Positions 1-56,211 of a DNA stretch of 64,000 bases are shown here, piece by piece. This DNA comes from Isurus oxyrinchus (taxonomy: Eukaryota), in the NCBI GenBank assembly GCA_026770705.1, contig JANJGN010000012.1, positions 45,756,001 to 45,820,000 on the forward strand. The letters run 5' to 3'. Position 1 is the stretch's first letter; the number at the start of each line of letters is the position of its first letter. The position numbers and the translations under genes are program-made. The notes below the pieces were generated by a model, which worked only from the letters and a program-made list of their open reading frames with translations, was not told where the DNA came from and did no database searches.

Positions 1-525
1 AAGTCAGGAGTGTGATGGAACACTCTGCACTTGCCTGGATGAGTGCAGCTCCAACCACACTCGTGAATCTTGACATCATCCAGGACAAAGCAGCCCGCTT
101 CATTGGCACCCCATCCACCACCTCCAAAGTACATTCCCTCCACTATTGATGCACAGTGGCAGCAGTGTGTACCATCTATTCTATAAGATGCACTGCAACA
201 ATTCACCAATGCTCCTTCAACAGCACCTTCCAAACCTGCGACCCCCCTACCGCCTAGAAGAACAAGGGCAACAGATACATGGAACACCACCTGCAAGTTC
301 CCCATCAAACCACACACCATCCTGACTTGGAAATATATTGCCGTTCCTTCAATGTTGCTGGTTCGAAACCCTGGAACTCCCTTCCTAACAGCACTGTGTG
401 TGTACCTACACCACATAAACTGCAGCAGTTCAAGAAGGTGGCTCACCACCATCTTCTCAAGGGCAATTTTGGCAATAAAAACCCTGGCCTAGCCAGCAAC
501 GCCCATGTCCCCTGAAAGAATAAAA
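1..525 (+). mobile_element. CR1-group LINE family A, 3' end fragment
   Basis: Same 3' region and tail (aaggtggctcaccacc...gggcaatt...gccagcaacgcccatgtcc) recurs near 4700-4820, 11050-11190, 12840-12985 and 24530-24680; degenerate. Confidence 0.8.
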
Positions 526-2619: not shown

Positions 2620-4820
2620 AATTAAACAACTAACTGAAGGACATCCTCACAAACATTCCCATTCTCAATGATGGCAGAGCCCACATCCACTACAGTACTG
2701 AAAACCTATGCTCCAGCCAAGCTGTTCTAGTACAGCTACAACACTGGCATCTAGCTGACAAGGTGGAAAATTACCCAAGTATATCCTGTCCACAAAAAGC
2801 AGGACAAATCCAATCCAGCCAGTTACCCCCCTTCTATCTACTCTTAATCATCAGCAAAGCGATGGAAGGTGTTATTGACAGTGCTATCAGATCGCGACAC
2901 TTACACAGTGTCATGAAAAGTCCATTACAGCCATGAATTACTTATGGGCATATTGAACTGTGTGTGTTTTTAAAGAAATACAACCCAAGACACTGAGCAA
3001 AAGATGGCTGATAATGTAAAGTGACCACTTTCTGGAAAAATTCTTATGTGGATCATACTGACAAACCTGCCCTAAGCGGACATGGAATGTTGCACCTGAA
3101 AAGGTGTCATGGCATTCTTCAAGCAGAGATACTTAAAAGGGAGATAGGAAAAATGCAAAAGACTGAACTTTAATCTCCTGTGGTTACAGAGACAAAAGAA
3201 TGATTACCACACGTCAACTGTCATCTAAAATCCATCTCCTGTTGATCCATATCTCAGTATGTGTAAAATGGTTGGAGATCAAAGAAAGCAGACTCTGGGT
3301 GTAAGACATGGTTTCTTTCCCTTACAGGAATAACAGGGAAAAATGGCTAACAAGCTAGCTGCAGAGCAGTGCTAGTGTGCTGTGAGAGTGACAGTACAAG
3401 AAGGCTGATTAGTCACCCCTGCAGTTGCAGGTAAAGTCTCTCTCTCTGCTGCTGGACGCAAGGCTCAGCAAAGCCACAATCAAAAAGGAAATAGTCCAGC
3501 CTCTTCAAGCCAACCTGCAGAACCAAGTGTCGCCAAACCAACTGCTAAACTGCCAAAGTCAGCTCTACCGGAATCACCCAACTTAACGGACGCAACGTTT
3601 CACCATTTATGCCTCACAGACAAGCCAAAGACTGATTTTTATATCATTTTTAACTTTTATTTGGACTCTTAACTTCTCATTTCTGATCTGTGTGTATGTT
3701 TGTTGCGTTCTTTTATTTTTCTTGTGTTTTTAGTAACTAATAAACTGACTCTTCCTTTGGCTCAAAAAAGCCTGGTTAAATTGGCTCCTAAAAAAATTGA
3801 ATACATTTGCACTGGGAAAAGGTATCCATGGGGAAAGGGATCCCTTTCAAATTAACCTTGTTGTGACCAACTGAGGGGGTTGAATAAAGGAGGGTAGCCA
3901 ATTCATCCCTCCTTACCCAGGATCATAACAAAATTGGGGTCCTTTTCAGGGTTAACAAACTGGGGAACCTTGCCTAGGGACCGGTTATAACAGCAGAAAT
4001 AATCTGCTCGCTGATGCTCAGTTTAGGTTCTGGCAGGGCCACTTGGCTTTGATCCAAACATGGGCAAAAAAGCTGAATTTCAGAGGTGAGGTCAGGGTGG
4101 CTGCTCTTGACATGAAGGCAGCATTTGACCGAGTATGGCATCAAGGAGCCCTGGCAAAACTGAAGTCAATGGGAATCAGGGAGAATACTGCACTGGTTGG
4201 AGTCATACCTACTACAAAGGAAGATGGTTGGGTTGTTGAAAGACAATCATCTCAATTCCAGGACATTGTTTCAGAAGTTCCTCAGGACAGCAGTGTCCTA
4301 GGCTCAACCATCTTCAGCTGCTTCATCAATGACCTTCCTTCCATCAAAGGACAGAGTGGAGACACCCAGGACAAAACAGCCCACTTGATTTGGCATCCCA
4401 TCCACCACCTTAAACATTCACTTCCACAGTGGGGGCAGCATGTACCATCTACAAATTGCACTGCAGCAACTTGCCAAAGCTCCTTCAACAGTATCTTCCA
4501 AACTCATGACCTCTACCACCTTGAAGGATAAGGGCAGCAGATGCATGGGAACACAACCCTCTGCAACTTCCTCTCCAAGTCACACACCACCCTGACTGGG
4601 AGTTATATTGCCGTTCTTTCATTGGCACTGGGTGAAAAACATGAAACTCCCCCTCACCGCCCCCCCTACCCCCAAAACAGCACTGTGGGTGTACCTATTC
4701 CAGATGGACTGCGGTGGTTCAGCAAGGTGACTCACTGCCATCTTCTCAAGGGCAATTAGGATTGGGGAATATATTGGCCCTGTCAGTGATGTTCACATTC
4801 CCATAAATGGATAAAAAAAA
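2620..4820 (+). mobile_element. CR1-group LINE family A (RT remnant), interrupted by an LTR
   Basis: ORF 4043-4531 has ALDMKAAFDRVWH...VPQD.SVLGSTIFSCFINDL RT motifs; frameshifted; family tail at about 4750-4820. Confidence 0.85.
2909..3991 (+). mobile_element. LTR retrotransposon LTR (solo-like) inserted in LINE
   Basis: Begins TGTCATGA and ends TAACA; contains AATAAA; near-TSD acag/gcag; LINE sequence is contiguous on both sides. Confidence 0.6.
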
Positions 4821-18016: not shown

Positions 18017-18737
18017 ATAAAAATAAAAAAACTGCGGATGCTGGAAATCCAAAACAAAAACAGAATTACCTGGAAAAACTCAGCAGGTCTGGCAGCATCG
18101 GCGGAGAAGAAAAGAGTTGACGTTTCGAGTCCTCATGACCCTTCAACAGAACTGAGTGAATATTAGAAGAGGGGTGAAATATAAACTGGTTTAAGGTGGG
18201 GTGTGGGGGAGAGAAGTGGGGGGGGGTGATCTTGAACTCCCTCCTCCATCCCCACCCCCTTTCCGTTTCTTCCCTCTTCCTTTTGTTTTTTCCAATAATT
18301 TATATAGATTTTTCTTTTCCCACCTATTTCCATTATTTTTAAATCTTATATGCCCTGCTAGTCTTTCCACCCCACCCCCACTAGAGCTGTACCTTGAGTG
18401 CCCTGCCATCCATTCTTAATTAGCACATTCGTTAGATAATATCACCACCTTCAACACTTCTTTGTTTCTTTGTCTGTGACATCTTTTGATTATCTGCTCC
18501 TATCACTGCTTGCTTGTCCCTACAACCACACCACCCCCCCCCACCCCCCCACTTCTCTCCCCCCCCCCCCCCCCCCCCCCCCCCCGCCACCTTAAACCAG
18601 CGTATGTTTCACCCCTCTTCTAATATTCACTCAGTTCTGTTGAAGGGTCATGAGGACTCGAAACGTCAACTCTTTTCTTTTCTGCCGATGCTGCCAGACC
18701 TGCTGAGTTTTTCCAGGTAATTCTGTTTTTGTTTTGC
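18017..18737 (+). mobile_element. Non-autonomous Penelope-like element: inverted terminus plus forward 3' UTR
   Basis: Near-identical inverted arms; hammerhead-like cores at 18115-18153 (-) and 18633-18671 (+); TSD ttaaacattt (18007-18016/18738-18747); interior resembles the 3' UTR of the 29083-30642 ORF. Confidence 0.9.
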
Positions 18738-28234: not shown

Positions 28235-31133
28235 ATAAAAACAAAGAGAACTGCGGATGCTGGAAATGCAAAACAAAAACAATTACCTGGAAAAACTCAG
28301 CAGGTCTGGCAGCATCAGCGGAGAAGAAAAGAGTTGACGTTTCGAGTCTTCATGACCCTTCGACAGAACTTGATTTCGACTCCAGGAAAGAGTTGAAATA
28401 TAAGTTGGTTTAAGGTGTGTGGGGGGGGGGGGGGGGGGCGCGGAGAGAGAGAGAGACAGAGGTGCTTGTGTAGACAAACAAGCAGTGATAGAAGCAGATC
28501 ATCAAAAGATGTCAGTGACAATGGGACAAAAGAACACATAGGTGTTAAAGTTAAAGTTGGTGATATTATCTAAACGAATGTGCTAATTAAGAATGGATGG
28601 TAGGGCACTCAAGGTACAGCTCTAGTGGGGGTGGGGGGAGCATAAAAGATTTTAAAATATTTAAAAATAAGTGGGAAAAGAAAAATCTGTAAAATTTATA
28701 GGGAAAAAAATCTGTTTGTGGATTTTAGGTAGGAGATAGAAGCGGGCCGTCCGAGGTTGGGCGACTATCAGGTTGGAAGCTGCGGGAGGGAGATCCCCAG
28801 AGGAGATGAGGTCAGTGACAGTCCTGGAAACAATGGCTTGATGTTCAGTGGTGGGGTCATGGTCCAGGGAGAGGTAGGAGGAAGTGTCTGCGAGTTGACG
28901 CTCAGCCTCCGCGAGGTAGAGGTCAGTGCGCCAGACAACAACAGCACCACCCTTGTCAGCGGGTTTGATGACAATGTCAGGGTTGGACCTGAGAGAATGG
29001 AGTGCAGTAAGTTCAGAGAGAGACAGGTTAGAATGGGTGAGAGGAGCAGAGAAATTGAGATGACTAATGTCGCGCCGACAGTATCCACAAACAGAACTGC
29101 CCCGGTAGACCGATCGTCTCAGCTTGCTCCTGCCCCACAGAACTCATTTCTCGTTATCTTGACTCCCTTCTCTCTCCCCTTGTCCAGTCCCTTCCCACCT
29201 ACATCCGTGATTCCTCTGACACCTTACGTCACATCAACAATTTCCAGTTCCCTGGCTCCAACCGCTTCCTCTTCACCATGGACGTCCAATCCCTCTACAC
29301 CTCCATCCCCCACCAGGATGGTCTGAGGGCCCTTAGCTTCTTCCTCGAACAGAGGCCCGAACAATCCCCATCCACCACTACTCTCCTCCGTCTGGCTGAA
29401 CTTGTTCTCACGTTGAACAATTTCTCCTTCAACTCCTCTCACTTTCTCCAAATAAAAGGTGTGGCTATGGGTACCCGCATGGGCCCCAGCTATGCCTGTC
29501 TCTTTATGGGATATGTGGAACATTCCTTGTTGCAGTCCTACCCCGGCCCCCTTCCACAACTTTTTCTCCGGTACATCGATGATTACTTCGGTGCCGCTTC
29601 ATGCTCTCGTCGGGACTTGGAAAAATTTATTAATTTTGCTTCCAATCTCCACCCCTCCATCATTTTCACGTGGTCCATCTCTGACACTTCCCTTCCCTTC
29701 CTTGACCTCCCTGTCTCAATCTCTGGTGATAGACTGTCCACTAATATCCATTACAAACCCACCGACTCCCACAGCTACCTCGACTACAGCTCCTCACACC
29801 CCGCTTCCTGTAAGGACTCCATCCCATTCTCCCAGTTCCTTCGCCTTCGTCGCATCTGTTCCGATGATGCTACCTTCAAAAACGGTTCCTCTGACATGTC
29901 CTCCTTCTTCCTTAACCGAGGTTTTCCACCCACGGTCGTTGACAGGGCCCTCAACCGTGTCCGGCCCATCTCCCGCGCATCCGCCCTCACGCCTTCTCCT
30001 CCCTCCCAGAAACATGATAGGGTCCCCCTTGTCCTCACTTATCACCCCACCAGCCTCCGCATTCAAAGGATCATCCTCCGCCATTTCCGCCAACTCCAGC
30101 ATGATGCCACCACCAAACACATCTTCCCTTCACCCCCCTTATCGGCATTCCGTAGGGATCGCTCCCTCCGGGACACCCTGGTCCACTCCTCCATCACCCC
30201 CTACTCCTCAACCCCCTCCTATGGCACCACCCCATGCCCACGCAAAAGATGTAACACCTGCCCCTTCACTTCCTCTCTCCTCACCGTCCAAGGGCCCAAA
30301 CACTCCTTTCAAGTGAAGCAGCATTTCACTTGCATTTCCCCCAACTTAGTCTACTGCATTCGTTGCTCCCAATGTGGTCTCCTCTACATTGGAGAGACCA
30401 AACGTAAACTGGGCGACCGCTTTGCAGAACACCTGCGGTCTGTCCGCAAGAATGACCCAAACCTCCCTGTCGCTTGCCATTTTAACACTCCACCCTGCTC
30501 TCTTGCCCACATGTCTGTCCTTGGCTTACTGCATTGTTCCAGTGAAGCCCAACGCAAACTGGAGGAACAACACCTCATCTTCCGACTAGGCACCTTACAG
30601 CCTTCCGGTCTGAATATTGAATTCAATAACTTTAGGTCGTGAGCTCCCTCCCCCATCCCCACCCCCTTTCTGTTTCCCCCCTTTTTTCCCCCCCTTTTTT
30701 TCCCTATAAATTTTACAGATTTTTCTTTTCCCACTTATTTTTAAATATTTTAAAATCTTTTATGCTCCCCCCACCCCCACTAGAGCTGTACCTTGAGTGC
30801 CCTACCATCCATTCTTAATTAGCACATTCGTTTAGATAATATCACCAACTTTAACTTTAACACCTATGTGTTCTTTTGTCCCATTGTCACTGACATATTT
30901 TGATGATCTGCTTCTATCACTGCTTGTTTGTCTACACAAGCACCTCTGTCTCTCTCTCTCTCTCCGCGCCCCCCCCCCCCCCACACACCTTAAACCAACT
31001 TATATTTCAACTCTTTCCTGGACTCGAAATCAAGTTCTGTCGAAGCGTCATGAAGACTCGAAACGTCAACTCTTTTCTTCTCCGCCGATGCTGCCAGACC
31101 TGCTGAGTTTTTCCAGGTAATTCTGTTTTTGTT
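28235..31133 (+). mobile_element. Penelope-like retroelement (Neptune-like), 5'-truncated, with inverted terminal arm and internal inversion
   Basis: TSD ttacattgttacaat (28219-28233/31134-31148); 28235-28710 is an inverted copy of the 3' end; 28711-29082 is the inverted upstream ORF segment; forward ORF from 29083. Confidence 0.95.
29083..30642 (+). CDS. PLE reverse transcriptase plus GIY-YIG endonuclease (N-terminally truncated, frame open)
   Basis: IHKQNCPGRPIVS, MDVQSLYT, GVAMG, RYIDD, Cys linker CPRKRCNTC, LVYCIRC..C.LLYIGET.R.L..RF.EH; frame is open from 29083 (ORF track starts at the Met at 29278). Confidence 0.95.
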   Translation: MHKQNCPGRPIVSACSCPTELISRYLDSLLSPLVQSLPTYIRDSSDTLRHINNFQFPGSNRFLFTMDVQSLYTSIPHQDGLRALSFFLEQRPEQSPSTTTLLRLAELVLTLNNFSFNSSHFLQIKGVAMGTRMGPSYACLFMGYVEHSLLQSYPGPLPQLFLRYIDDYFGAASCSRRDLEKFINFASNLHPSIIFTWSISDTSLPFLDLPVSISGDRLSTNIHYKPTDSHSYLDYSSSHPASCKDSIPFSQFLRLRRICSDDATFKNGSSDMSSFFLNRGFPPTVVDRALNRVRPISRASALTPSPPSQKHDRVPLVLTYHPTSLRIQRIILRHFRQLQHDATTKHIFPSPPLSAFRRDRSLRDTLVHSSITPYSSTPSYGTTPCPRKRCNTCPFTSSLLTVQGPKHSFQVKQHFTCISPNLVYCIRCSQCGLLYIGETKRKLGDRFAEHLRSVRKNDPNLPVACHFNTPPCSLAHMSVLGLLHCSSEAQRKLEEQHLIFRLGTLQPSGLNIEFNNFRS

Positions 31134-32391
31134 TTACATTGTTACAATCCCTGACCCAAATTTAAGATCTGGTTGGAGACTAGTAACTTTTGTTGCGAAG
31201 TAGGTTAAATTTGAAATCCCAGTTAACTACTAAGAATAAAGCCAAAAGATACCACGGTTTCAAACAAATGGACAAAATTTTATTATACAAGAGTCAATAA
31301 AGCAAAAGGTCAATGCAATCTAATACTCAACATCCAGAATTAATGTGAGGTAAACATGAATTAACAGGTGAACTGGTAAAACACACTGCAAGCTACACAA
31401 CTGGCACACGCCAAAGTCAGATCAAACATTTCTCAGCAACTCACCCAGACGTCAATGATCAGTTACAAAATGCTGTGTATCTTGTCACTGCATTGGAACA
31501 GGAAGTTGGTACTACTAATGTCATCATTGGGCGCCTGGAACAGGAAGTCGGCACCCACTCCTGTAGGTAAGAATGATGCCACTGACATTGCATGCCTATT
31601 GTCTGTCGCCTCTGCTGCTTTCTCACCATCCATTTCCAACAATCAATATTAAATTTTTGCTTTTTAGACAGATATAGAACAAATAGATTTCACCTGTTAT
31701 TTTGCTTAAATTAGGTAAGCTTAAAGAAATTGCTTACAGACAATTCCAGGATTTATCAGCTCACTAAAGAAACACTTTTTAACCAAATTTGCCACTAACT
31801 CGAATGTCCCTATAGCCCTTTTGCTGAGCTGCAGGTATTACCGCTCCTTCTGCTTGTGTTACATCAGTTGCATTATCCTTTGATGCAGGCAACTACCTGA
31901 GGCATCATTGTCAGTGACGCTGTCACTGTGTTTGCATGTGTGGTGAGTGCACCCCCTGCAGTTACAGTGGCAGCAAACAGCTGTTTAAAAAATCCTTTAC
32001 AACTCCACCCATGTCATGAAGGATTTCCAGTCCTCTCTGAACAGCCACTCTAACTTGGACTGTCCCAACGATTGTTCACCTCCTCAGTCTTCTCACAAGA
32101 CTGCATCCCCCTGGATTCACAAGGCTGCACCCCAACATCTAATAACCACACAATCACAGATGTCTAGCTTCTTTGAGCATAACACCACTGCTCCTCTCAG
32201 ACAGGACGCCAGGACCACTCAGTTCCTGACTTCATTACAGCCTTAGCTGAAACATGGACAGAAGAGCTGAACTCAAGAGGTGGGAGTGACTATCCTTCAA
32301 GGCTGCATTTGCCGAATGTGGTATCAAGGAACCCTAGCAAAACTGGAGTCAATGGGAATAAGGGGGGAAAACTGTCCACTGGTTGGAGTCA

Positions 32392-34676: not shown

Positions 34677-35058
34677 GGCTTGGCCTAAATAGCCAAGTGG
34701 TTATGGTACTGGGTTTGTAAACCCAAGATCAAGAGTTCAAATCTCACAATGGCAAGGGGCTTGGCCTGAATAGCCAAGTGGTTATGGTACTGGGTTTGTA
34801 AACCCAAGATCAAGAGTTCAAATCTCACAATGGCTGATTGGCCTAAATGGCCAAGTGGTTATGGTACTGGGCTTGTAACCCCAAGATTGTGAGTTCAAAT
34901 CTCACAATGGCAAACTATGAAACAATGTAACTTCATCTGAAACAGATGGAAACGGGTTTGTACTCGAAAGAGTTACCACTGGCACAGGCTTGGCCTAAAT
35001 AGCCAAGTGGTTATGGTACTGAGCTTGTAAACCCAAGATCAAGAGCCTTTACAATGGC
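34677..35058 (+). repeat. Four tandem tRNA-Thr(TGT)-derived units (trimer plus structured tail, then a fourth unit); SINE-like
   Basis: Units start at 34677, 34758, about 34838 and 34987, with A-box TAGCCAAGTGG, TTGTAA anticodon loop and B-box GAGTTCAAAT (lost in unit 4); poor acceptor and anticodon stems; 13-bp duplication taccactggcaca (34664-34676/34974-34986). Confidence 0.85.
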
Positions 35059-35944
35059 TTTAACATTAAACTGTTGATGAGGCGCAAGGAAATACTGTGG
35101 TAGTAAAGAGTGGCACAACCTTATGATGCACCTCAGTTGTTATTCTATGCACTCCACAAAGATGTTGTTGAATGCTAGAGAAAGAAGCATCTAAGCAGCC
35201 CCGGTGCCTCCTGATGTACCTTTCCTACGCCTGATCCAGCCTGTTATGGCATCTGATGCAACAGCTATTACTGATAAATCCCACAGCAGGGGGAGCTGGC
35301 AGACAACTTTTGGAAGACATTTGGCTGCCCCTAGAGGTAAGATTAGAAAGAACGCTCAGTTGAGCATTCCAACCATGATTTCAGCAGCCTCGACTGTTAA
35401 AAATCAAAGACTCAGGAACATTGGTCTCACATGCAGCCAGTGAGACTGGTCTCTTCTTCTTATGCTGCTGATGATGGGACATTTGGAGGAGTATCTGCAA
35501 TGCAGTAAGGGAGCAGGATATGAAGTGAGGAAGACCCTGGTGTCTGGCAATCTAGGAGATCAAGATAGCCACCAGCCAGGCATTAGGAGGAGGATATAAG
35601 AGCTGTTATCACTTTTGTGCTGGTGACAGTTACTGCTTGCATGGATCATATTGTTAGAAAGTAGACTCAACTGCTCAGAAACTGCAGTTTCAACATAGTA
35701 GATGTAAAACCCTGTCCAATCTGTGTTCTAGAATCCTACCTCCATGCATTTGCATTGAGCCAATTTCCTTCCCATTTGATTCCAGTGGTTGTGCTTCCAG
35801 CACAAGGAGGTCCTGGGAGCAAAAACATGGCAGAAATTGAATTGGCCAGTTATGATGCGGAGTTTTGCTGAAGGGCCTGCCTCACCTGACTTCCCAGATC
35901 ACCACCCTGAAATGGTCATGTTTCAGAAGAAGTTCTAGGCCTTT

Positions 35945-49728: not shown

Positions 49729-52700
49729 CAGGCGGAATCATCCCAGATGTGCACTAAGTGCAGTAGCGGGTGGGAAAATGTGCCGGCTGCAATGATGGCT
49801 TTTCATGCCGTATCGTCCCATTACTAATTCATTCCTGGGAAACAAGCTGGGTTGCTGGCAGAACAGCCTCTGATTTGTCCGCCCTGCCGTCACCTCAGAT
49901 GTTCAGTAAACTGGGCGCCACGTTTAAAGGCTGCCCTTGCACAGAGCTAGCTAGCACTGTTCAAGGGATAGGAAGCTGCTGGGAACCGATGGCTGCCAAA
50001 GGGAGGAAACATGCTGCCCCCAAATTTAACAACGTGTCCCTCGAGAGCCTACTGGACGTAGTGGAGCTCTGCCATGATGTTCTCTACCCTAGCAGGCAAG
50101 GTCACCAATCCAGCATAGGAGGCGATGGCAGCGGTGGTCAGTGCCAATGCCCTGCAAAAGAGGACAGCCACGCAGTGCAGAAAGGGGATGAATGTTCTCA
50201 TCCATTCTGCCAGGGGAAGGCACTCTTCTCATCACTGTCAACTCACACGCTCACAAACCCATCACACATCCACAAGGATCTCCCCATTCAAGGGACAACA
50301 CCACTAACTCACACTCACCCTCACATCTCCATCAGGCTGGAACTTGCATCCTCATCCTGTCCATGGCTTCGCTAACTGCACAAACATTCCATGCAGTGCC
50401 ATGTGTCCTGCTTGCACTCTCCCCATCAGTTTTCATGCAGGAGAAGCTGGCACACAACAGCAAAGGAAGGTCCCAGATGAGGGTGGAATGGCCCACATTA
50501 AACCCCTGACTCACTTTGAGGAATGTGCCATTGTGCTGACTGGTGAGGACGTGGACCATGTCTGTGGTGATGGTGAGGTCGGATGCGAACACCCATGTGA
50601 GGATCCTGCACCACACCATCCCTCTCTCAAAGCAATGGTGAGTGTTCTCACTCATGTTTTTGACTCTGCTGCCATGCATAATCACCTCAATGTTGGGTCA
50701 CGGGGAGCTCTGTCAAGCAACCAACAGCCTCAGCCAGTCAGTCTCTCACCTCCAGCAAAGAGGACATGTCCTGCTTTGAAGAATTGGAAGTAAGCAGTCT
50801 GGAAGACCCGTCACAGTGCTTACCCACACCCTCCACCAGTGCAGAGACCCACACCTCCATAGGACCTAGATCTAGAGCAGGCTTGTGTTCACAACCTGGT
50901 GGTCACTGCATGGACATGTGTCTACAGCAGGAGGAGATAGGTTCAGCCGAGCTCAGCTGAACCTGCCTCTTCTTGCTGCGGTACTTGGAGGAATGCTGGG
51001 GAAGAGGCATCTGCGAGGTCTGAGTCAGATGACGAGCATCTGGATTCAACCTTCCAACTCATCGTGGAGAGTCAGCAGAAGGCGGAAGTACATCATGCAG
51101 AGCTGTTGGAAACGCTCAACAGAGTGGCAGGTGAGTTGAAGGAGTAAATCCATCTGCTCGCTGATGAAGTGGTGCCCACATATGTGTGCATGGAGGTCTC
51201 CGTGGGAAGGATGGCAGATGCCATGGAGACTCTGGACCAGCAGAACGCGGAGACGCACGCAGACCTGCACTCCATCGTGGAAGCCATGGGTGAGTTCCTG
51301 CAGTGGCAATGTGAGAGGGAAATGGGGCATCGCAATGTCCCTCCAGGTGCTCCTTCCCTCAAGCCGGGGTAGCTGGACAGCTCTGGGTCATCCACTCAGG
51401 AACCTGAGAAGCTGTCCTCTCCCTCCGAGTCCCCTTTGCCTGTGAACCCCTAAACCTTGTTCTCTGTCACCACAGCGGGAGCAGCTGGCCCACAGGGGGA
51501 CAGACAAAGCAAGCCAGGGCCCTCAAGGCCTCAGCTGTCCAGAGGACCAACGTCAAAGTCATCAGAAGCAACAGGGCCAACCATCGCACAGGCTGTTTCT
51601 ACCCTTCCAGTGAATGTCAGAACAGCAACTAGAAGAAGTTGTAGGCCTAGAAAAATTAAAAATTTTTCATCACAAGTGGTTGCATGGGTGAATACATTTT
51701 GTCACTTTATAATCTGAAAATATATTCTGTGAAAATGGATGTTTTTTAAAAAATACTTTGGGGAAATATTGTGTTATTCTGTAAAGAAGGCTGTGTGTCT
51801 GTGTCTTTTTGCATGTGATTTTATTAAGCTGGGTAAGAGTTTGATAGGAGTCAGGTTGTCTGGGGTTTTCGAAACATGAAAAGGATAGAGGTTTTAAATA
51901 AAAGGTACAAGTAAATGGGTTAGATCTAACATTTGCATTTTTAGCTAACTTCAGAAGTTGCTTGAATTTCAAAGGGGAGTCAGAGATTGCAAGGAAAATG
52001 TTTGCACCTTTCAGGAGTCCATAGGTAAACAATAGTGGGTTATTATATTTTTATTGACCCAAAAGCAAAGACAAGGTGGAAACATGAAAGATCTTATATT
52101 TGGAAGGGTTTGAGTTTCGAAGGGGTGTGCGAACAATGGGACTGAGATGAAAGGGAGAAAAGGTATATTATAGTGACTATGGATAGCTGTTTTTTAGCTA
52201 TTGAGCTGGACAGCTATTAAACTGGATAGCTGTTAAGCTGGATATGGCTGGAGATAGCTAGAGCTGTTAGAGCTGCCAAGATAGCTGGAGCTATGGACGG
52301 GGGTGGGGGGGGAAGGTGGAGGTCGGTGGGGGGGTGCGGGGAGAGTAGGATGAAGTTTGAATCACCCCTCTCTTCAAACCAGAGAAGCCTTGGGCTGCAG
52401 GAAGCAATTTTATTCTGAAGTGAATTCCATAGCAAAATGGAAGTGGGTAAAGGTCACATGGTACATCTTTGTTGAAGCTACAGTAGTTTGCTTTGTGCAA
52501 TATTACTGGATTTTTCATATTTAAACATCTATAAGGGATTGTTGCCTGGAAGATGTTTACTTGTGGGTTTGGCCAAGTAGAGAGTTTTTGGGGAAATGTT
52601 TTGTAAGACAATCCTTAATTGTGTAGCTGTAATCTCTCAACTGGATCATCCTCTCCTCCACCTCCGACAATCATCCGTAACAGCCCATGGCTAATACCAT

Positions 52701-53153
52701 GAAGTCCCAAAGCAGACCCCAGACATCAACGGAGACCTTCCACCTTCAGTGAGCTGCTTCACGCAGAGCCATGTCCGTGAGAATCCACCTGGCATGCACT
52801 TCTTCTTCCAGGGTCGGGTAGCTGTAGGGCTCCAGCTTCTTCTGCTCCTTGGAAGTCAGCAATGTGAGCAACGAGAAGTCCTGACTTCCTGCACATCACA
52901 CTTGTCATGGCGTTTGCTCGCCTGGCATGTTTTCCTGCCGACGTGGGTGGTAAATTGGTGTGGGGTGGTGATTCCGGTGAGCAGGGCTTATAATTAGATG
53001 CAAATGCATTAAACTGACATTCTCGATGTGCAGCCGCAGGAAGCATGACTTGTGGAGCAGATGATTGCAAATGTGAAACTGATTTTTGGCCTTCTCGCTA
53101 TATTGTCCGCTCATTCCTGCCATGACGCCAACGGGGATGGAAAATTCCGGCCC
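49729..53153 (+). mobile_element. PIF/Harbinger-like DNA transposon with Myb/SANT-like ORF remnant; nested LTR at about 51729-52620
   Basis: Imperfect TIRs (aggcggaatcatccc / gggatggaaaattccggccc); AAPKFNNVSLESLLDVVE...DVLYP and AAVVSANALQKRTATQCRKGMNVL are Myb/SANT-like; no transposase recognised. Confidence 0.7.
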
Positions 53154-53159
53154 ATGTGT

Positions 53160-53187
53160 CACAGCAACAGAAGGTAAAACAAAAACT
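53160..53187 (+). promoter_or_regulatory. V-segment recombination signal, 12-bp spacer
   Basis: CACAGCA + ACAGAAGGTAAA (12 nt) + ACAAAAACT, 6 nt after the transposon end. Confidence 0.85.
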
Positions 53188-53503
53188 AGGAGCTGTAAGG
53201 GTTACACTCTTAATATTGTTTTATCTGATAAAACATTTTAGTGTTTTACATTTCATAAAATCACTTTTTAATTTTGTCCTTTGTACAACATTTTCCAATT
53301 CATATCATTTCATAATTGATAACATTCTGAATCTCACTGCCCAGTATTGGGTGTTGATGATATTTTAATGTCAGTGTATAGGTGTTGCTGTGAGTTCATT
53401 CCTCACTGTCCCTCACCAGCAGGAACACTGGAAATACATGAAGCCTGATTAATGCTGGGACTGGAGAATCTGAATGTGTTTTCTGTCTGATTCCAGGATC
53501 CTG

Positions 53504-53579
53504 GATAACTGTATGGACTGAGCCCTAGAATATCACACTGTTAATGAGTTCAGCCAAGGGACCAAGCTCTTTGTTGCAG
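53504..53579 (+). pseudogene. Ig light-chain J segment (coding 53543-53579) with degenerate 23-RSS
   Basis: NEFSQGTKLFVA followed by a phase-1 GTAAGT donor; heptamer CACTGTT at 53536-53542; weak nonamer GATAACTGT 23 nt upstream. Confidence 0.85.
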
Positions 53580-53772
53580 GTAAGTGCTTGGAAATTCCCT
53601 CCTGCAGAAACCAGCTGTGTGAATTTAGGCAACATAAATGAATGAATAATTCAAACTCAGTTATTTCTTAGCACCTACTTGTTAAATGTCAATTTTACAG
53701 TGAAAATACTAATTACATCTTTAGTCTCCAGCACCAGTTGTGTTAAATAGGCACACAACAATAATTATTAGG

Positions 53773-54389
53773 ATAAAAACAAAAAAACTGCGGATGCTGG
53801 AAATCCAACCTGGAAAAACTCAGCAGGTCTGGCAGCATCGGCGGAGAAGAAAAGAGTTGACGTTTCGAGTCCTCATGACTCTTCGACAGAACTGTCGCTA
53901 TGTCGTAGGGTAGAGATTGCACCGCAGTAGTAAACTGTTAATGAGCCTGGATTGTTTAATGTTGAAACAGGTTTTCGTCCAGGAATTAGAGGCATAGTCA
54001 TTTCCATAATACTCGATGCTGATTCCTTGGCATTGGAGTTTGGTCCACTTCCGGTATTCCACCTCCCTCCAAGCCGCGTATCTGTTGATGGGTTTGGGCC
54101 TGGACGTTTGGGTAGTATCTGTCCATCCCATAGCGATACCAATTTCATCCGCGCCATTTCCTTCCTCAGTCCCTCTTAGACCTCCACTATCCTTGAGGCC
54201 TTCTTCGATCTCTCTGAGTACTTTGAGGTTCCTCAGGGAGTCGATTATTTGTTTGTTGTCAATTCCGCTGAATTGAAAAGAGGTCTCTGTCACCGTGTCC
54301 AGTTTTGTCGAAGCGTCATGAGGACTTGAAACGTCAACTCTTTTCTTTTCCGCCGATGCTGCCAGACCTGCTGAGTTTTTCCAGGTAAT
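53773..54389. mobile_element. PLE inverted-terminus cassette carrying 407-bp non-PLE cargo (53894-54300)
   Basis: Arms 53773-53893 (-) and 54301-54389 (+); TSD (a)ataattattagg (53760-53772/54387-54399). Confidence 0.9.
53898..54299 (-). other. Cargo open frame of unknown origin (about 133 codons, no ATG start; overlapping second frame from ATG 54157)
   Basis: Frame is open from the cargo edge (DTVTETSFQ...) to a TAG 4 nt before the other edge; no family recognised. Confidence 0.45.
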
Positions 54390-54990
54390 AATTATTAGGG
54401 CTGCATATGAGCTTGTACTGCCTCTGACATTAGCAGTTTATTAATACTGTTTCTGTATATTAGTATTGTTTCTGTTAATAAGCACTCTGATTTTACAAAT
54501 TCATTTCCAAAATTGTCTATGGACATTAGTTGGTTTATATTTTTGAAATACGGTTGGTGCAGATAGATTTTTGATCAGTATATGGTGCAGTTTTTTCAAA
54601 CCCTAATGAAGGACAGTGTTGGAGAAAGGGATAAATTGTGGTGTTCTCTCATGGTTGAGCTGTTTTGTTGAACAACTAGGGGAAGGTGAGTCACTATTAG
54701 AAGAACTGGGAGGAATTAAGTTTAAAGAAAGGAATTTCATTTATCTAACACCTTTTCATGTCCTGAATTGTTTCATATTGAAGCGAGTAGTTTTGAAGAG
54801 CCATTATTGCTGTAGGCAGTTAATGCACAGCAAGATCCTGCGCACAAGACCAATTATTACTTTACTAGAATGAATTTAAGGCTTATTGACCAGGACACTG
54901 GGACAACAATGTTATGGGACATATTGCATCCACTTGAACAAACATTCTTTTCAGAAACAAAGCATTGTTCATACAGCAGTGTATTTACAT

Positions 54991-55090
54991 AGTTCTGTCG
55001 AAGGGTCGTGAGGACTCGAAACGTCAACTCTTTTCTTCTCCGCCGATGCTGCCAGACCTGCTGAGCTTTTCCAGGTAATTCTGTTTTTGT
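54991..55090 (+). mobile_element. Solo 100-bp PLE terminus starting exactly at the hammerhead-like stem I
   Basis: AGTTCTGTCGA...GAAACGTCAACT...TTTTTGT with perfect TSD agtgtatttacat (54978-54990/55091-55103). Confidence 0.92.
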
Positions 55091-55369
55091 AGTGTATTTA
55101 CATGGTACTCCAATGAAGTGTTGATCAAAACATAGTTCCTGGTTCCATATTTCTTTACTCAAGTCCCCTTTCTCATCGCTATTTTCTGGTATATTGATGA
55201 TGGTCTCAGTGCTATTTCCTATTCTTGCATTGAACTGGAAAATCTCATCAACTTTGCTTCCACTTTCTACCCTTCTACCTGCGCATGGTCCATTTCCAAC
55301 TCTTCCCTTCCTCAACTTCTCTGTCACAATTTCTGGGGATAGGTTAACAAACTGGGGAGATTATCACCG

Positions 55370-55675
55370 GAGAGGCGGTAGTATAGTGGTATTGTCACTG
55401 GTCTAGTTTTCCAGAGACCCAGGGTAATACTCCAGGGACCCAGGCTTGAATTCCACCACGGCAGATGGTGAAATTTAAATTCAATAAAAACCTGGATTTA
55501 AAGTCTGATGATGAATGTCATAAAAACCCAACTGGTTCACTAATGCCCTTTAGGGAAGGAAATCTGCCATCTTTTTGTGTGATTCCAGATCCACAGCTAT
55601 GCGGCTGGCTCTTAAAGGCAATTAGAGATGGACCCAGCCATTGTCACTCACATCCCATGAACTAATAAAAAAAAT
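55370..55675 (+). mobile_element. tRNA-SINE (SacSINE1-like) inserted in an older PLE RT remnant (about 55150-55830)
   Basis: Similar to 43932-44300; the flank encodes LPFLNFSVTISGDRL, matching LPFLDLPVSISGDRL of the PLE RT. Confidence 0.7.
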
Positions 55676-56211
55676 CCAATATCCACTGTAAGTCCACTAA
55701 GCCTCCAAGCTAGCTTAAGTGCAGTTCTCCCATCCTACTTTCTGTAGGGTCTCTATTCCATTCTTCCAGTTTCTCAATCTCTGTTGTAACTATTCTCTTA
55801 TGATATGTTTTCTCTTCTCCTGCTTAAGCAAACATTCTGCCACCTCCATCAACTTGTATTTATATAACTCTTTTAATGTAAATAAAAAACATCCCCAGGA
55901 GGTTTACAATTGTCAAACAAAATATGTTGCTAAGCCAGACAAGAAGATATAAGGTTAGCGGTCAAATAGATAGGCTATTGTATTGCTGGAAAAAGAGACA
56001 TGTCAAAGCTTTTGGTCTTGCACTCATCAGGACACTTCGCAAGAATACCAATGTAAGAGGAAAACAACTATTTATACTGTATGAGAAGAGAGTGCTGATT
56101 GGTGTGGTTGACAAGCAGGCTCTGATTGGTAGAGGTGTTACCATGCAAAATGTAACTACATATATTAATAAACAGGACCCTGTTCTTTGCAGATGGAAAG
56201 AACATGTACAC

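Follow-up and report, generated by a model that had tools for sequence, protein, structure and literature searches.

A fragment of an R2 retrotransposon between inverted Penelope-like termini in Isurus oxyrinchus

In a 64-kb window of the Isurus oxyrinchus genome (the whole stretch of DNA that was analysed), two arms of a Penelope-like element (PLE) stand head to head at 53773..54389 inside a single 13-bp target-site duplication (TSD), and the cargo between them is a piece of an R2 retrotransposon. We consider it moderately probable that this unit is a twin-primed PLE insertion in which cDNA made by the PLE reverse transcriptase (RT) jumped onto R2 RNA. It is best read as a dead by-product of PLE insertion and not as a mobile cassette. 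Capture of sequence between PLE termini has already been published; the recurrent PLE–R2 joins may be new.

Structure of the focal unit and origin of its cargo

The two TSD copies (AATAATTATTAGG, 13 bp, as read in the sequence) lie at 53760..53772 and 54387..54399, the right copy overlapping the end of the right arm by 3 nt. With positions counted from the A of AGTT in arm sense (+n), the left side, on the minus strand, comprises a tail (53773..53807) that reaches to about +134 and an arm (53808..53893) that starts with AGTT at +0, carries a degenerate minimal hammerhead at +0..+39 and is identical at 84/86 positions to an intact tandem unit of the parent element; 16 nt are absent directly before the tail, where it meets the arm. 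The right arm (54301..54389, plus strand) has no tail and agrees with the intact unit at 81/86 positions. Compared as 53808-53894 and 54300-54386, the arms are complementary over 87 nt at 95%, and the spacing from AGTT to AGTT is 407 nt. An initial sequence-only reading had described such an inverted pair around 407 nt, a single TSD around the whole unit, a tail on the left arm only (likewise at 18017 and 28235) and a solo arm at 54991 starting at AGTT, and each of these was borne out; the solo arm (54991..55090, plus strand), an independent insertion, has its own TSD. The same reading had placed both cargo junctions exactly at AGTT. The arms do start there, but the joints themselves are less simple: at the left, six bases (53894..53899; up to nine) match neither R2 nor PLE and are untemplated or micro-templated, and at the right, where the arm reads AGTTTTG, 2–3 bases are shared as microhomology with R2. 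A spanning contig was present at the left junction in 3/3 large runs and was listed for the right junction in 1 of 3, so the unit is not an assembly artefact. No empty-site joint for the insertion was among the joints listed (15 of 150). A presumed RNA run, under another organism code, gave no coverage of the cargo, which carries no evidential weight.

The cargo does not match the PLE, and neither the 64-kb window nor the 10 kb on either side contains another copy, in keeping with the earlier description; it is, however, recognisable. A genome-wide search gave 236 candidate matches, of which 40 were scored, and the piece (53900..54303, minus strand; 401 nt) corresponds to nt 3169-3570 of a 4.7-kb natural R2 copy, coding, with one frameshift, for the region between the RT and the zinc knuckle. 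Its sense is that of the tailed arm, with the R2 3′ side at the left junction and the 5′ side at the right, and it ends 1.1 kb inside R2. Longer relatives encode an RT, a CCHC knuckle, a restriction-like nuclease and N-terminal zinc fingers with a Myb motif, as read from their motifs; the Pfam hits on these copies (Myb, E 4.5e-04, and C2H2) were all below the cut-offs. When an R2 RT/linker query was searched with phmmer, R2 structures were matched at E 4.5e-89, compared with 3e-09 for L1, and the cargo encodes residues 292-423 of that query at 83% identity. Three further candidates for the cargo were rejected: a viral or unrecognised sequence, by the identity with R2; the missing 5′ part of the same PLE, as only the arms match the intact PLE unit in the focal region; and an internal region of one non-autonomous family (a retrozyme or SINE-like cassette), the breakpoints being different.

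Full-length R2 was found at the 28S site in all three long rDNA units checked, where it is 84% like the cargo. Intervals of R2 size made up 5/66 of the rDNA intervals, and R2-free units outnumber them by about 12 to 1. In trees built from natural copies and short alignments, with rough support and a midpoint root, an older group A holds the cargo, a group B is dispersed, and the present rDNA copies are nested within B. For the subfamily to which the cargo belongs, the only link to 28S is given by three read-through copies (L148, L149 and L157), in which the R2 3′ end runs on into 28S (LSU rRNA, E 1.8e-269). The end branch of the cargo (0.019-0.022) is of the same order as the divergence of the arms (2 and 5 of 86).

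Outside rDNA, we also observed long R2 copies with intact 3′ ends and without PLE arms (L006, L007, L009, L011, L013, L014 and L017), one of which, L009, has a 30-bp duplication; these may be off-target or relaxed R2 insertions of the middle-aged group B. A further set (L210-L214 and L217), about 70-80% like the reference copy and with 28S read-through, consists of older dispersed R2 types and appears from its sequences to be a record of earlier R2 lineages.

The PLE family and its AGTT boundary

The parent element was found as a tandem array on contig C38 (8900000-8927400; L083-L085) of about eight near-identical, full-length units of 3316 bp, with a 918-aa ORF from ATG whose frame is open in most units. 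This ORF gave RVT_1 at E 7e-08 and GIY-YIG at E 8.6e-04 (20 bits, just missing the Pfam cut-off of 22.6), and a CxxC between GIY and YIG was read directly in its sequence. The family thus shows the hallmarks of EN+ Penelope-like elements, namely an ORF with RT and C-terminal GIY-YIG, a tandem array, an inverted truncated copy, a tail and a TSD. The linker carries CPRKRCNTC, a zinc-finger-like motif, and an extra motif of this kind in the RT–EN linker is the criterion given for Neptune in part of PMC8557442; by its linker cysteines the parent would therefore fit the Neptune type. In the parent, the arm and tail adjoin the ATG (+174) on its upstream side. Two relatives lie in the window: an autonomous-PLE copy at 28235..31140 (plus strand), 5′-truncated and 5′-inverted, with its own TSD and an ORF piece at 29068-30642 covering RT and GIY-YIG, and a two-arm unit at 18017..18736 with its own TSD and PLE sequence only inside, which serves as a comparison without cargo.

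The exact arm 54-mer occurs 50,075 times in the 4.98 Gb searched, which by arithmetic is one exact match per 100 kb, so chance adjacency of an arm to any given sequence is well below 1%. We scored 121 young arms, drawn from nearly all of the first 100 matches listed, on contig C1. In 80 of them the arm abuts other PLE sequence, 19 are solo arms with a TSD, 17 were unresolved and 5 were cut; a cargo-bearing unit was proven for one of the 121. The TSDs of the family are mostly of 13-15 bp, and head-to-head arm pairs without cargo are common. Arm 3′ ends fall into two classes, +96..110 (56/121) and +125..150 (60/121), around +102 and +134, which supports the earlier proposal that both DNA ends are primed from a short terminal RNA. 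At the other end, 52/116 arms start at −8..+10 (the five arms cut by a locus edge having been dropped), and the A of AGTT is the very first base in 20 of 40 truncated, non-colinear arms. The fixed AGTT junctions of the sequence-only reading were accordingly real as a position, although the stop is common to nearly all arms, with cargo or without, and is not a ribozyme cut. Because 5′ ends cluster there whether or not cargo is present, the sharp AGTT stop is a property of the PLE family and not of the cargo.

The arm motif has the layout of a minimal type-I hammerhead (AGTT/AACT, GGGTC/GACTC and GAAA-CGTC, compared with the part of PMC4209133 on this motif), with helix I, helix II and an extra base after position 9, GAAA, a palindromic stem III and an NUH site. 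The consensus of the hammerhead core is CUGANGA. Young arms have CUGUCGA or CUGUUGA (CUGUYGA) and the arm at 54301 has UUGUCGA, and two older copies in the window retain CUGAUGA and CUGAAGA cores. Rfam gave no family at E<=1 over 52000-56000, and no stable fold was found for three 86-nt arms (z = +0.9 to +2.0). The hammerhead-like terminus that had been suggested therefore stands for the layout, but not for the core or for a stable fold. The predicted cut is at +35, 35 nt beyond AGTT, and 0/33 arms that lack the selecting 54-mer start at +30..40, on which ground the hammerhead cut was rejected as the junction. Stalling of the RT by a hairpin at AGTT was also rejected, as the arm does not fold stably.

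AGTT is presumably the start (5′ end) of the PLE transcript. By analogy, it could alternatively be a splice acceptor at AG|TT: in D. virilis Penelope, the intron ends at helix I (PMC4209133, in part), and the element has an internal promoter with a transcript start further upstream (PMC2377424, in part). A spliced exon joined at AG|TT was rejected in our data: of 293 arms, two are joined to another PLE piece in sense orientation, each at +277 and with the AG kept, and no recurrent spliced join was seen. PLE self-joins, in which a sense PLE piece starting near 0 precedes an arm ending near 0, have piece 3′ ends at +271..279 (five loci), +232, +253 and +1092/1094 (two loci), within size windows that favoured shorter pieces. 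They look like jumps at the end of the RNA, for which tail priming alone is insufficient.

Such self-joins were seen at L339, L346, L352, L356, L358, L092 and L330, and the ends at +271..279 adjoin a pyrimidine tract and TAG. The inner piece of L346 begins at +35, the predicted hammerhead cut site. In another two-arm insertion (L287; C5:51743249-51746404, about 1510-1790), a unit of ~40 nt (about −5..+36) is repeated six times in tandem, as if a tiny RNA running from the presumed start to the predicted cut had been copied round or jumped onto repeatedly.

Foreign middles and PLE–R2 joins across the genome

To collect two-arm units without regard to cargo, we searched for three patterns that all have AGTT as a fixed left junction and that differ in the gap, which was about 110-170, 240-300 or 380-440 nt. 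These gave 54, 29 and 20 matches, of which 35, 26 and 20 loci were examined (strand duplicates dropped, and part of the 54 taken); one locus could not be delimited. Most contained PLE sequence only or separate neighbouring insertions, and 20 units had a foreign middle inside one outer TSD. For 18 of these 20 the middle is a copy, 90-100% identical and up to 420 bp long, of DNA at a distance of 18 to about 1000 bp; two remain unresolved, and R2 or rDNA was found in 0/20. Only 3/300 random pieces had a local twin in the control. Among the short local cases, 13 in number and 12 of them with a TSD, donors lay on either side and in either orientation, with the free right junction at −10..+8. Five more two-arm units had no TSD, with local donors for L288 and L357 and no clear donor for L337, L342 and L362. 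Thus the constant arms with varied cargo that had been postulated do exist, as many different cargos between arms inside one TSD, but most of the foreign middles are copies of neighbouring DNA. In a separate two-arm unit (L311; C25:9452988-9480811), the middle is AT-rich and recurs at least nine times in a tandem array close by.

Joins between PLE and R2 were sampled from the other side with two R2 probes, whose top 20 and top 30 matches gave 50 loci, or 42 events after repeats and apparent segmental duplicates were merged. PLE-joined R2 pieces made up 24 of the 42 independent dispersed events, all with different breakpoints, and seven of the 24, the focal unit included, are two-arm units inside one TSD. 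Where breakpoints are identical (L004/L005 and a C3 group), the flanks are shared as well, which suggests segmental duplication. In the 3′-UTR tree, 16 of 19 group A pieces were PLE-joined, compared with one among 14 later dispersed pieces (Fisher p 1.3e-05, L211 being excluded; relatedness among the copies makes this value overstate the case). Counting L004/L005 once, eight chimeras found with the cargo probe stop inside R2 at nt 3570-3973, 700-1100 nt from its 3′ end; one of the chimeras, L003, has an extra inverted 3′-UTR piece. No second R2 copy lay within the 10-kb context of any of the five chimeras checked, or near the window. Group A pieces become fewer with distance from the R2 3′ end: three probes found about 19, 7 and 2 of them, the last figure coming from 20 loci of the third probe, which lies 2 kb from that end.

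Ribosomal sequence outside the arrays was also found. One arm picked without regard to cargo (L036) is joined, within a single TSD and without R2, to a 71-nt stretch that is 99% identical to the rDNA 5′ spacer. Of 11 dispersed 28S sites, eight adjoin a clear R2 and one a faint R2; the two dispersed 18S sites seen have no arm within 1.5 kb. A probe for one mRNA family, EF-1alpha (domain 3), gave six matches, namely five intron-flanked exons and one weak match, with no processed copy, and no viral cargo was met among the units examined. As a separate observation, an rDNA piece of at least 7.5 kb, with repeats of the upstream spacer, lies outside the arrays and shows no PLE match in the stretch (L318; C9:134190000-134199999); it probably moved as DNA.

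Mechanism, alternatives and known systems

In the account that we favour, the GIY-YIG nuclease would make a cut staggered by 13-15 nt, and the RT would start within the PLE RNA at two tail sites, from both cut ends, much as an anole PLE does in vitro. If the PLE RNA begins at the A of AGTT, each cDNA would run off after 100-135 nt. Its free end would normally join the other arm or the target, and would sometimes take up PLE RNA again, sometimes nearby DNA and, rarely, R2 or pre-rRNA. In the focal case, a few untemplated bases would have been added before a jump onto R2 RNA from rDNA; the R2 cDNA would then have annealed to the right-arm cDNA through the 2–3 nt of microhomology, and repair would have closed the joint. 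The single TSD and the outward-pointing arms fit one insertion event, and joins of this kind recur at other sites. A jump onto an unrelated RNA, as proposed in the sequence-only reading, is the likeliest source of the focal cargo. A jump by the PLE RT onto R2 RNA is favoured by the shared sense of the cargo, the untemplated bases, the end 1.1 kb inside R2 and the lack of a local donor, and an RNA donor by R2 3′ ends that run into 28S and by the over-representation of R2 relative to plain rDNA. That the jump departs from the end of the PLE RNA is suggested by the self-joins, which start from the same point near 0. For the anole PLE, two internal RT starts define the tail, and both strands are cut and extended (Frangieh 2024, PMC11167929); the anole element tested in vitro belongs to Poseidon, whereas the parent PLE here has a Neptune-type linker motif.

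Several observations weigh against this account. Jumping driven by abundance predicts that rRNA and mRNA cargo should be common, yet there are two dispersed 18S sites and 0/6 EF-1alpha matches that are processed copies. A step that copies DNA exists, as most foreign middles attest, and rDNA could have been copied by it. Moreover, the thinning of group A pieces away from the R2 3′ end fits the R2 protein acting in cis. The main alternative, on balance unlikely, is that two retrotransposons met at one break, the PLE having made the arms and the R2 protein, on its own RNA, having extended a free PLE or target end. In its favour, most non-local cargos are R2, with hardly any plain rRNA or EF-1alpha mRNA, and the R2 pieces are biased to the 3′ side. 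Four one-arm units (L148, L153, L154 and L157) abut the flank directly with an end in 28S or at or close to the R2 3′ end. In vitro, the B. mori R2 RT can switch templates and add untemplated bases, as stated in part of PMC8857657, and armless R2 copies with intact 3′ ends also occur outside rDNA. The R2 protein starts copying at the R2 3′ end. It is the less likely copier because the eight chimeras found with the cargo probe, the focal unit and seven others, stop 700-1100 nt inside R2 and not at that end; the rDNA spacer on the L036 arm lacks R2, and the self-jumps of the PLE from AGTT need no R2 sequence.

It seems to us improbable that the donor was distant DNA (an rDNA unit bearing R2, or stray R2 cDNA) that was invaded by the free cDNA end and copied by host repair synthesis. 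Local DNA was copied in both orientations and from both sides into 18 of the 20 TSD-bounded foreign middles, against 3/300 in the control, and the C9 piece with its upstream spacer repeats suggests that rDNA moves as DNA too. However, R2-free rDNA is in excess by ~12:1, and yet plain rDNA was met as cargo once (L036) against 24 R2 joins, a comparison made with unequal probes (400 and 320 nt for R2, three 24-mers for rDNA). We give very little credence to the cassette system first proposed for this unit, a dedicated archive of constant arms and variable cargo that stores RNA of cellular or viral origin and gives hairpin-closed transcripts. Many different cargos do lie inside one TSD with both junctions near AGTT, and some non-local cargos come from transcribed sequence. 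Cargo units are nevertheless rare (one proven among 121 arms) and mostly hold local DNA, the focal cargo is a piece of multicopy R2, neither viral nor mRNA cargo was met, and arms without cargo share the AGTT stop. A mobile cassette is likewise disfavoured by breakpoints that vary from site to site, apart from apparent segmental duplicates, and by the lack of any sign of re-mobilisation. The archive reading is largely refuted.

A wider scheme may also be considered, which we advance only tentatively. The telomerase-related RT would make a strong-stop cDNA like that of retroviruses: it would start at the tail, run off at AGTT and have to transfer template in order to copy the gene, as a rule through a terminal repeat of 35 nt that has the hammerhead cut as its 3′ limit. 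Solo and head-to-head arms would be left when this transfer fails, and R2 particles from rDNA would repeatedly take over the stalled ends. If so, one retrotransposon superfamily would carry another out of its fixed target and leave a dated record of R2 versions gone from rDNA.

Among known systems, EN+ Penelope-like elements (PMC11167929 and part of PMC8557442) share with the present family the RT with C-terminal GIY-YIG, tandem array, inverted truncated copy, tail of 30-40 nt at one end, two internal RT starts and hammerhead just upstream of the tail; those texts describe neither a sharp 5′ stop at stem I nor foreign DNA at inner junctions, as seen here. Unrelated host sequence inside one TSD is known from the Penelope pLTRs of Adineta vaga (Arkhipova 2013, PMC3846280, in part). 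That capture concerns an intron-containing gene between direct pLTRs of a low-copy family, while the units described here have short fillers, head-to-head arms of 90-135 nt and traced donors (mostly local DNA, repeatedly R2) in a family of at least 50,000 copies; a few non-coding captures between solo pLTRs are also mentioned in that part of the paper, and capture between PLE termini with a TSD is reviewed in part of PMC6431247. In L1 twin priming (Zumalave 2024, 10.1101/2024.08.27.596794, and PMC11702581, both in part), both nicks likewise prime, microhomology closes the joint, local DNA is copied in, and chimeras of two RNAs form in the same or opposite sense. The local templates of L1 are mostly <250 bp and within 15 bp according to these sources, compared with up to 420 bp and 18 to about 1000 bp away here; the present system also differs in that a single short terminal segment serves both primings and that a second autonomous retrotransposon is the partner.

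The donor R2 shares its zinc fingers, Myb, RT, CCHC and nuclease motifs and 28S site with R2 bearing three N-terminal zinc fingers (Kojima 2016, PMC5035012, and PMC13188248, both in part), and differs from described R2 in having dozens of pieces outside rDNA, the older ones mostly PLE-fused; non-site-specific R2 families and R2 of cartilaginous fish are mentioned in parts of the literature. Animal (non-LTR) retrozymes are, like the arms, short, hammerhead-bearing and PLE-dependent; they form tandem-repeat families in the portion of 10.64898/2026.07.22.740005 that describes them, whereas the focal unit consists of one inverted pair around a one-off filler. A literature search by title and start of abstract, thin for subscription journals and with supplements outside its scope, found no recurrent PLE–R2 chimeras. 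If these joins are what they appear to be, they would represent an interaction of two unrelated autonomous retrotransposons at one break that has preserved older R2 sequence. The completion of PLE insertions and the origin of their tandem and inverted forms are stated to be unresolved (PMC11167929; PMC8557442, in part). In this family, at least 50,000 young copies bear signatures that are sharp to the base (two starts, the AGTT stop, self-jumps, local fillers and R2 joins); from these, predictions follow directly for the in vitro assay already in use, and the unfinished insertion steps become testable.

Two other features of the window were observed. A stretch at 53497-53580, 190 bp to the left of the insertion, is bounded by AG and GT, with a contig from a presumed RNA run ending at the GT, and is possibly a host exon. 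At 34677-35063, a 77-nt tRNA-like unit is present in four tandem copies.
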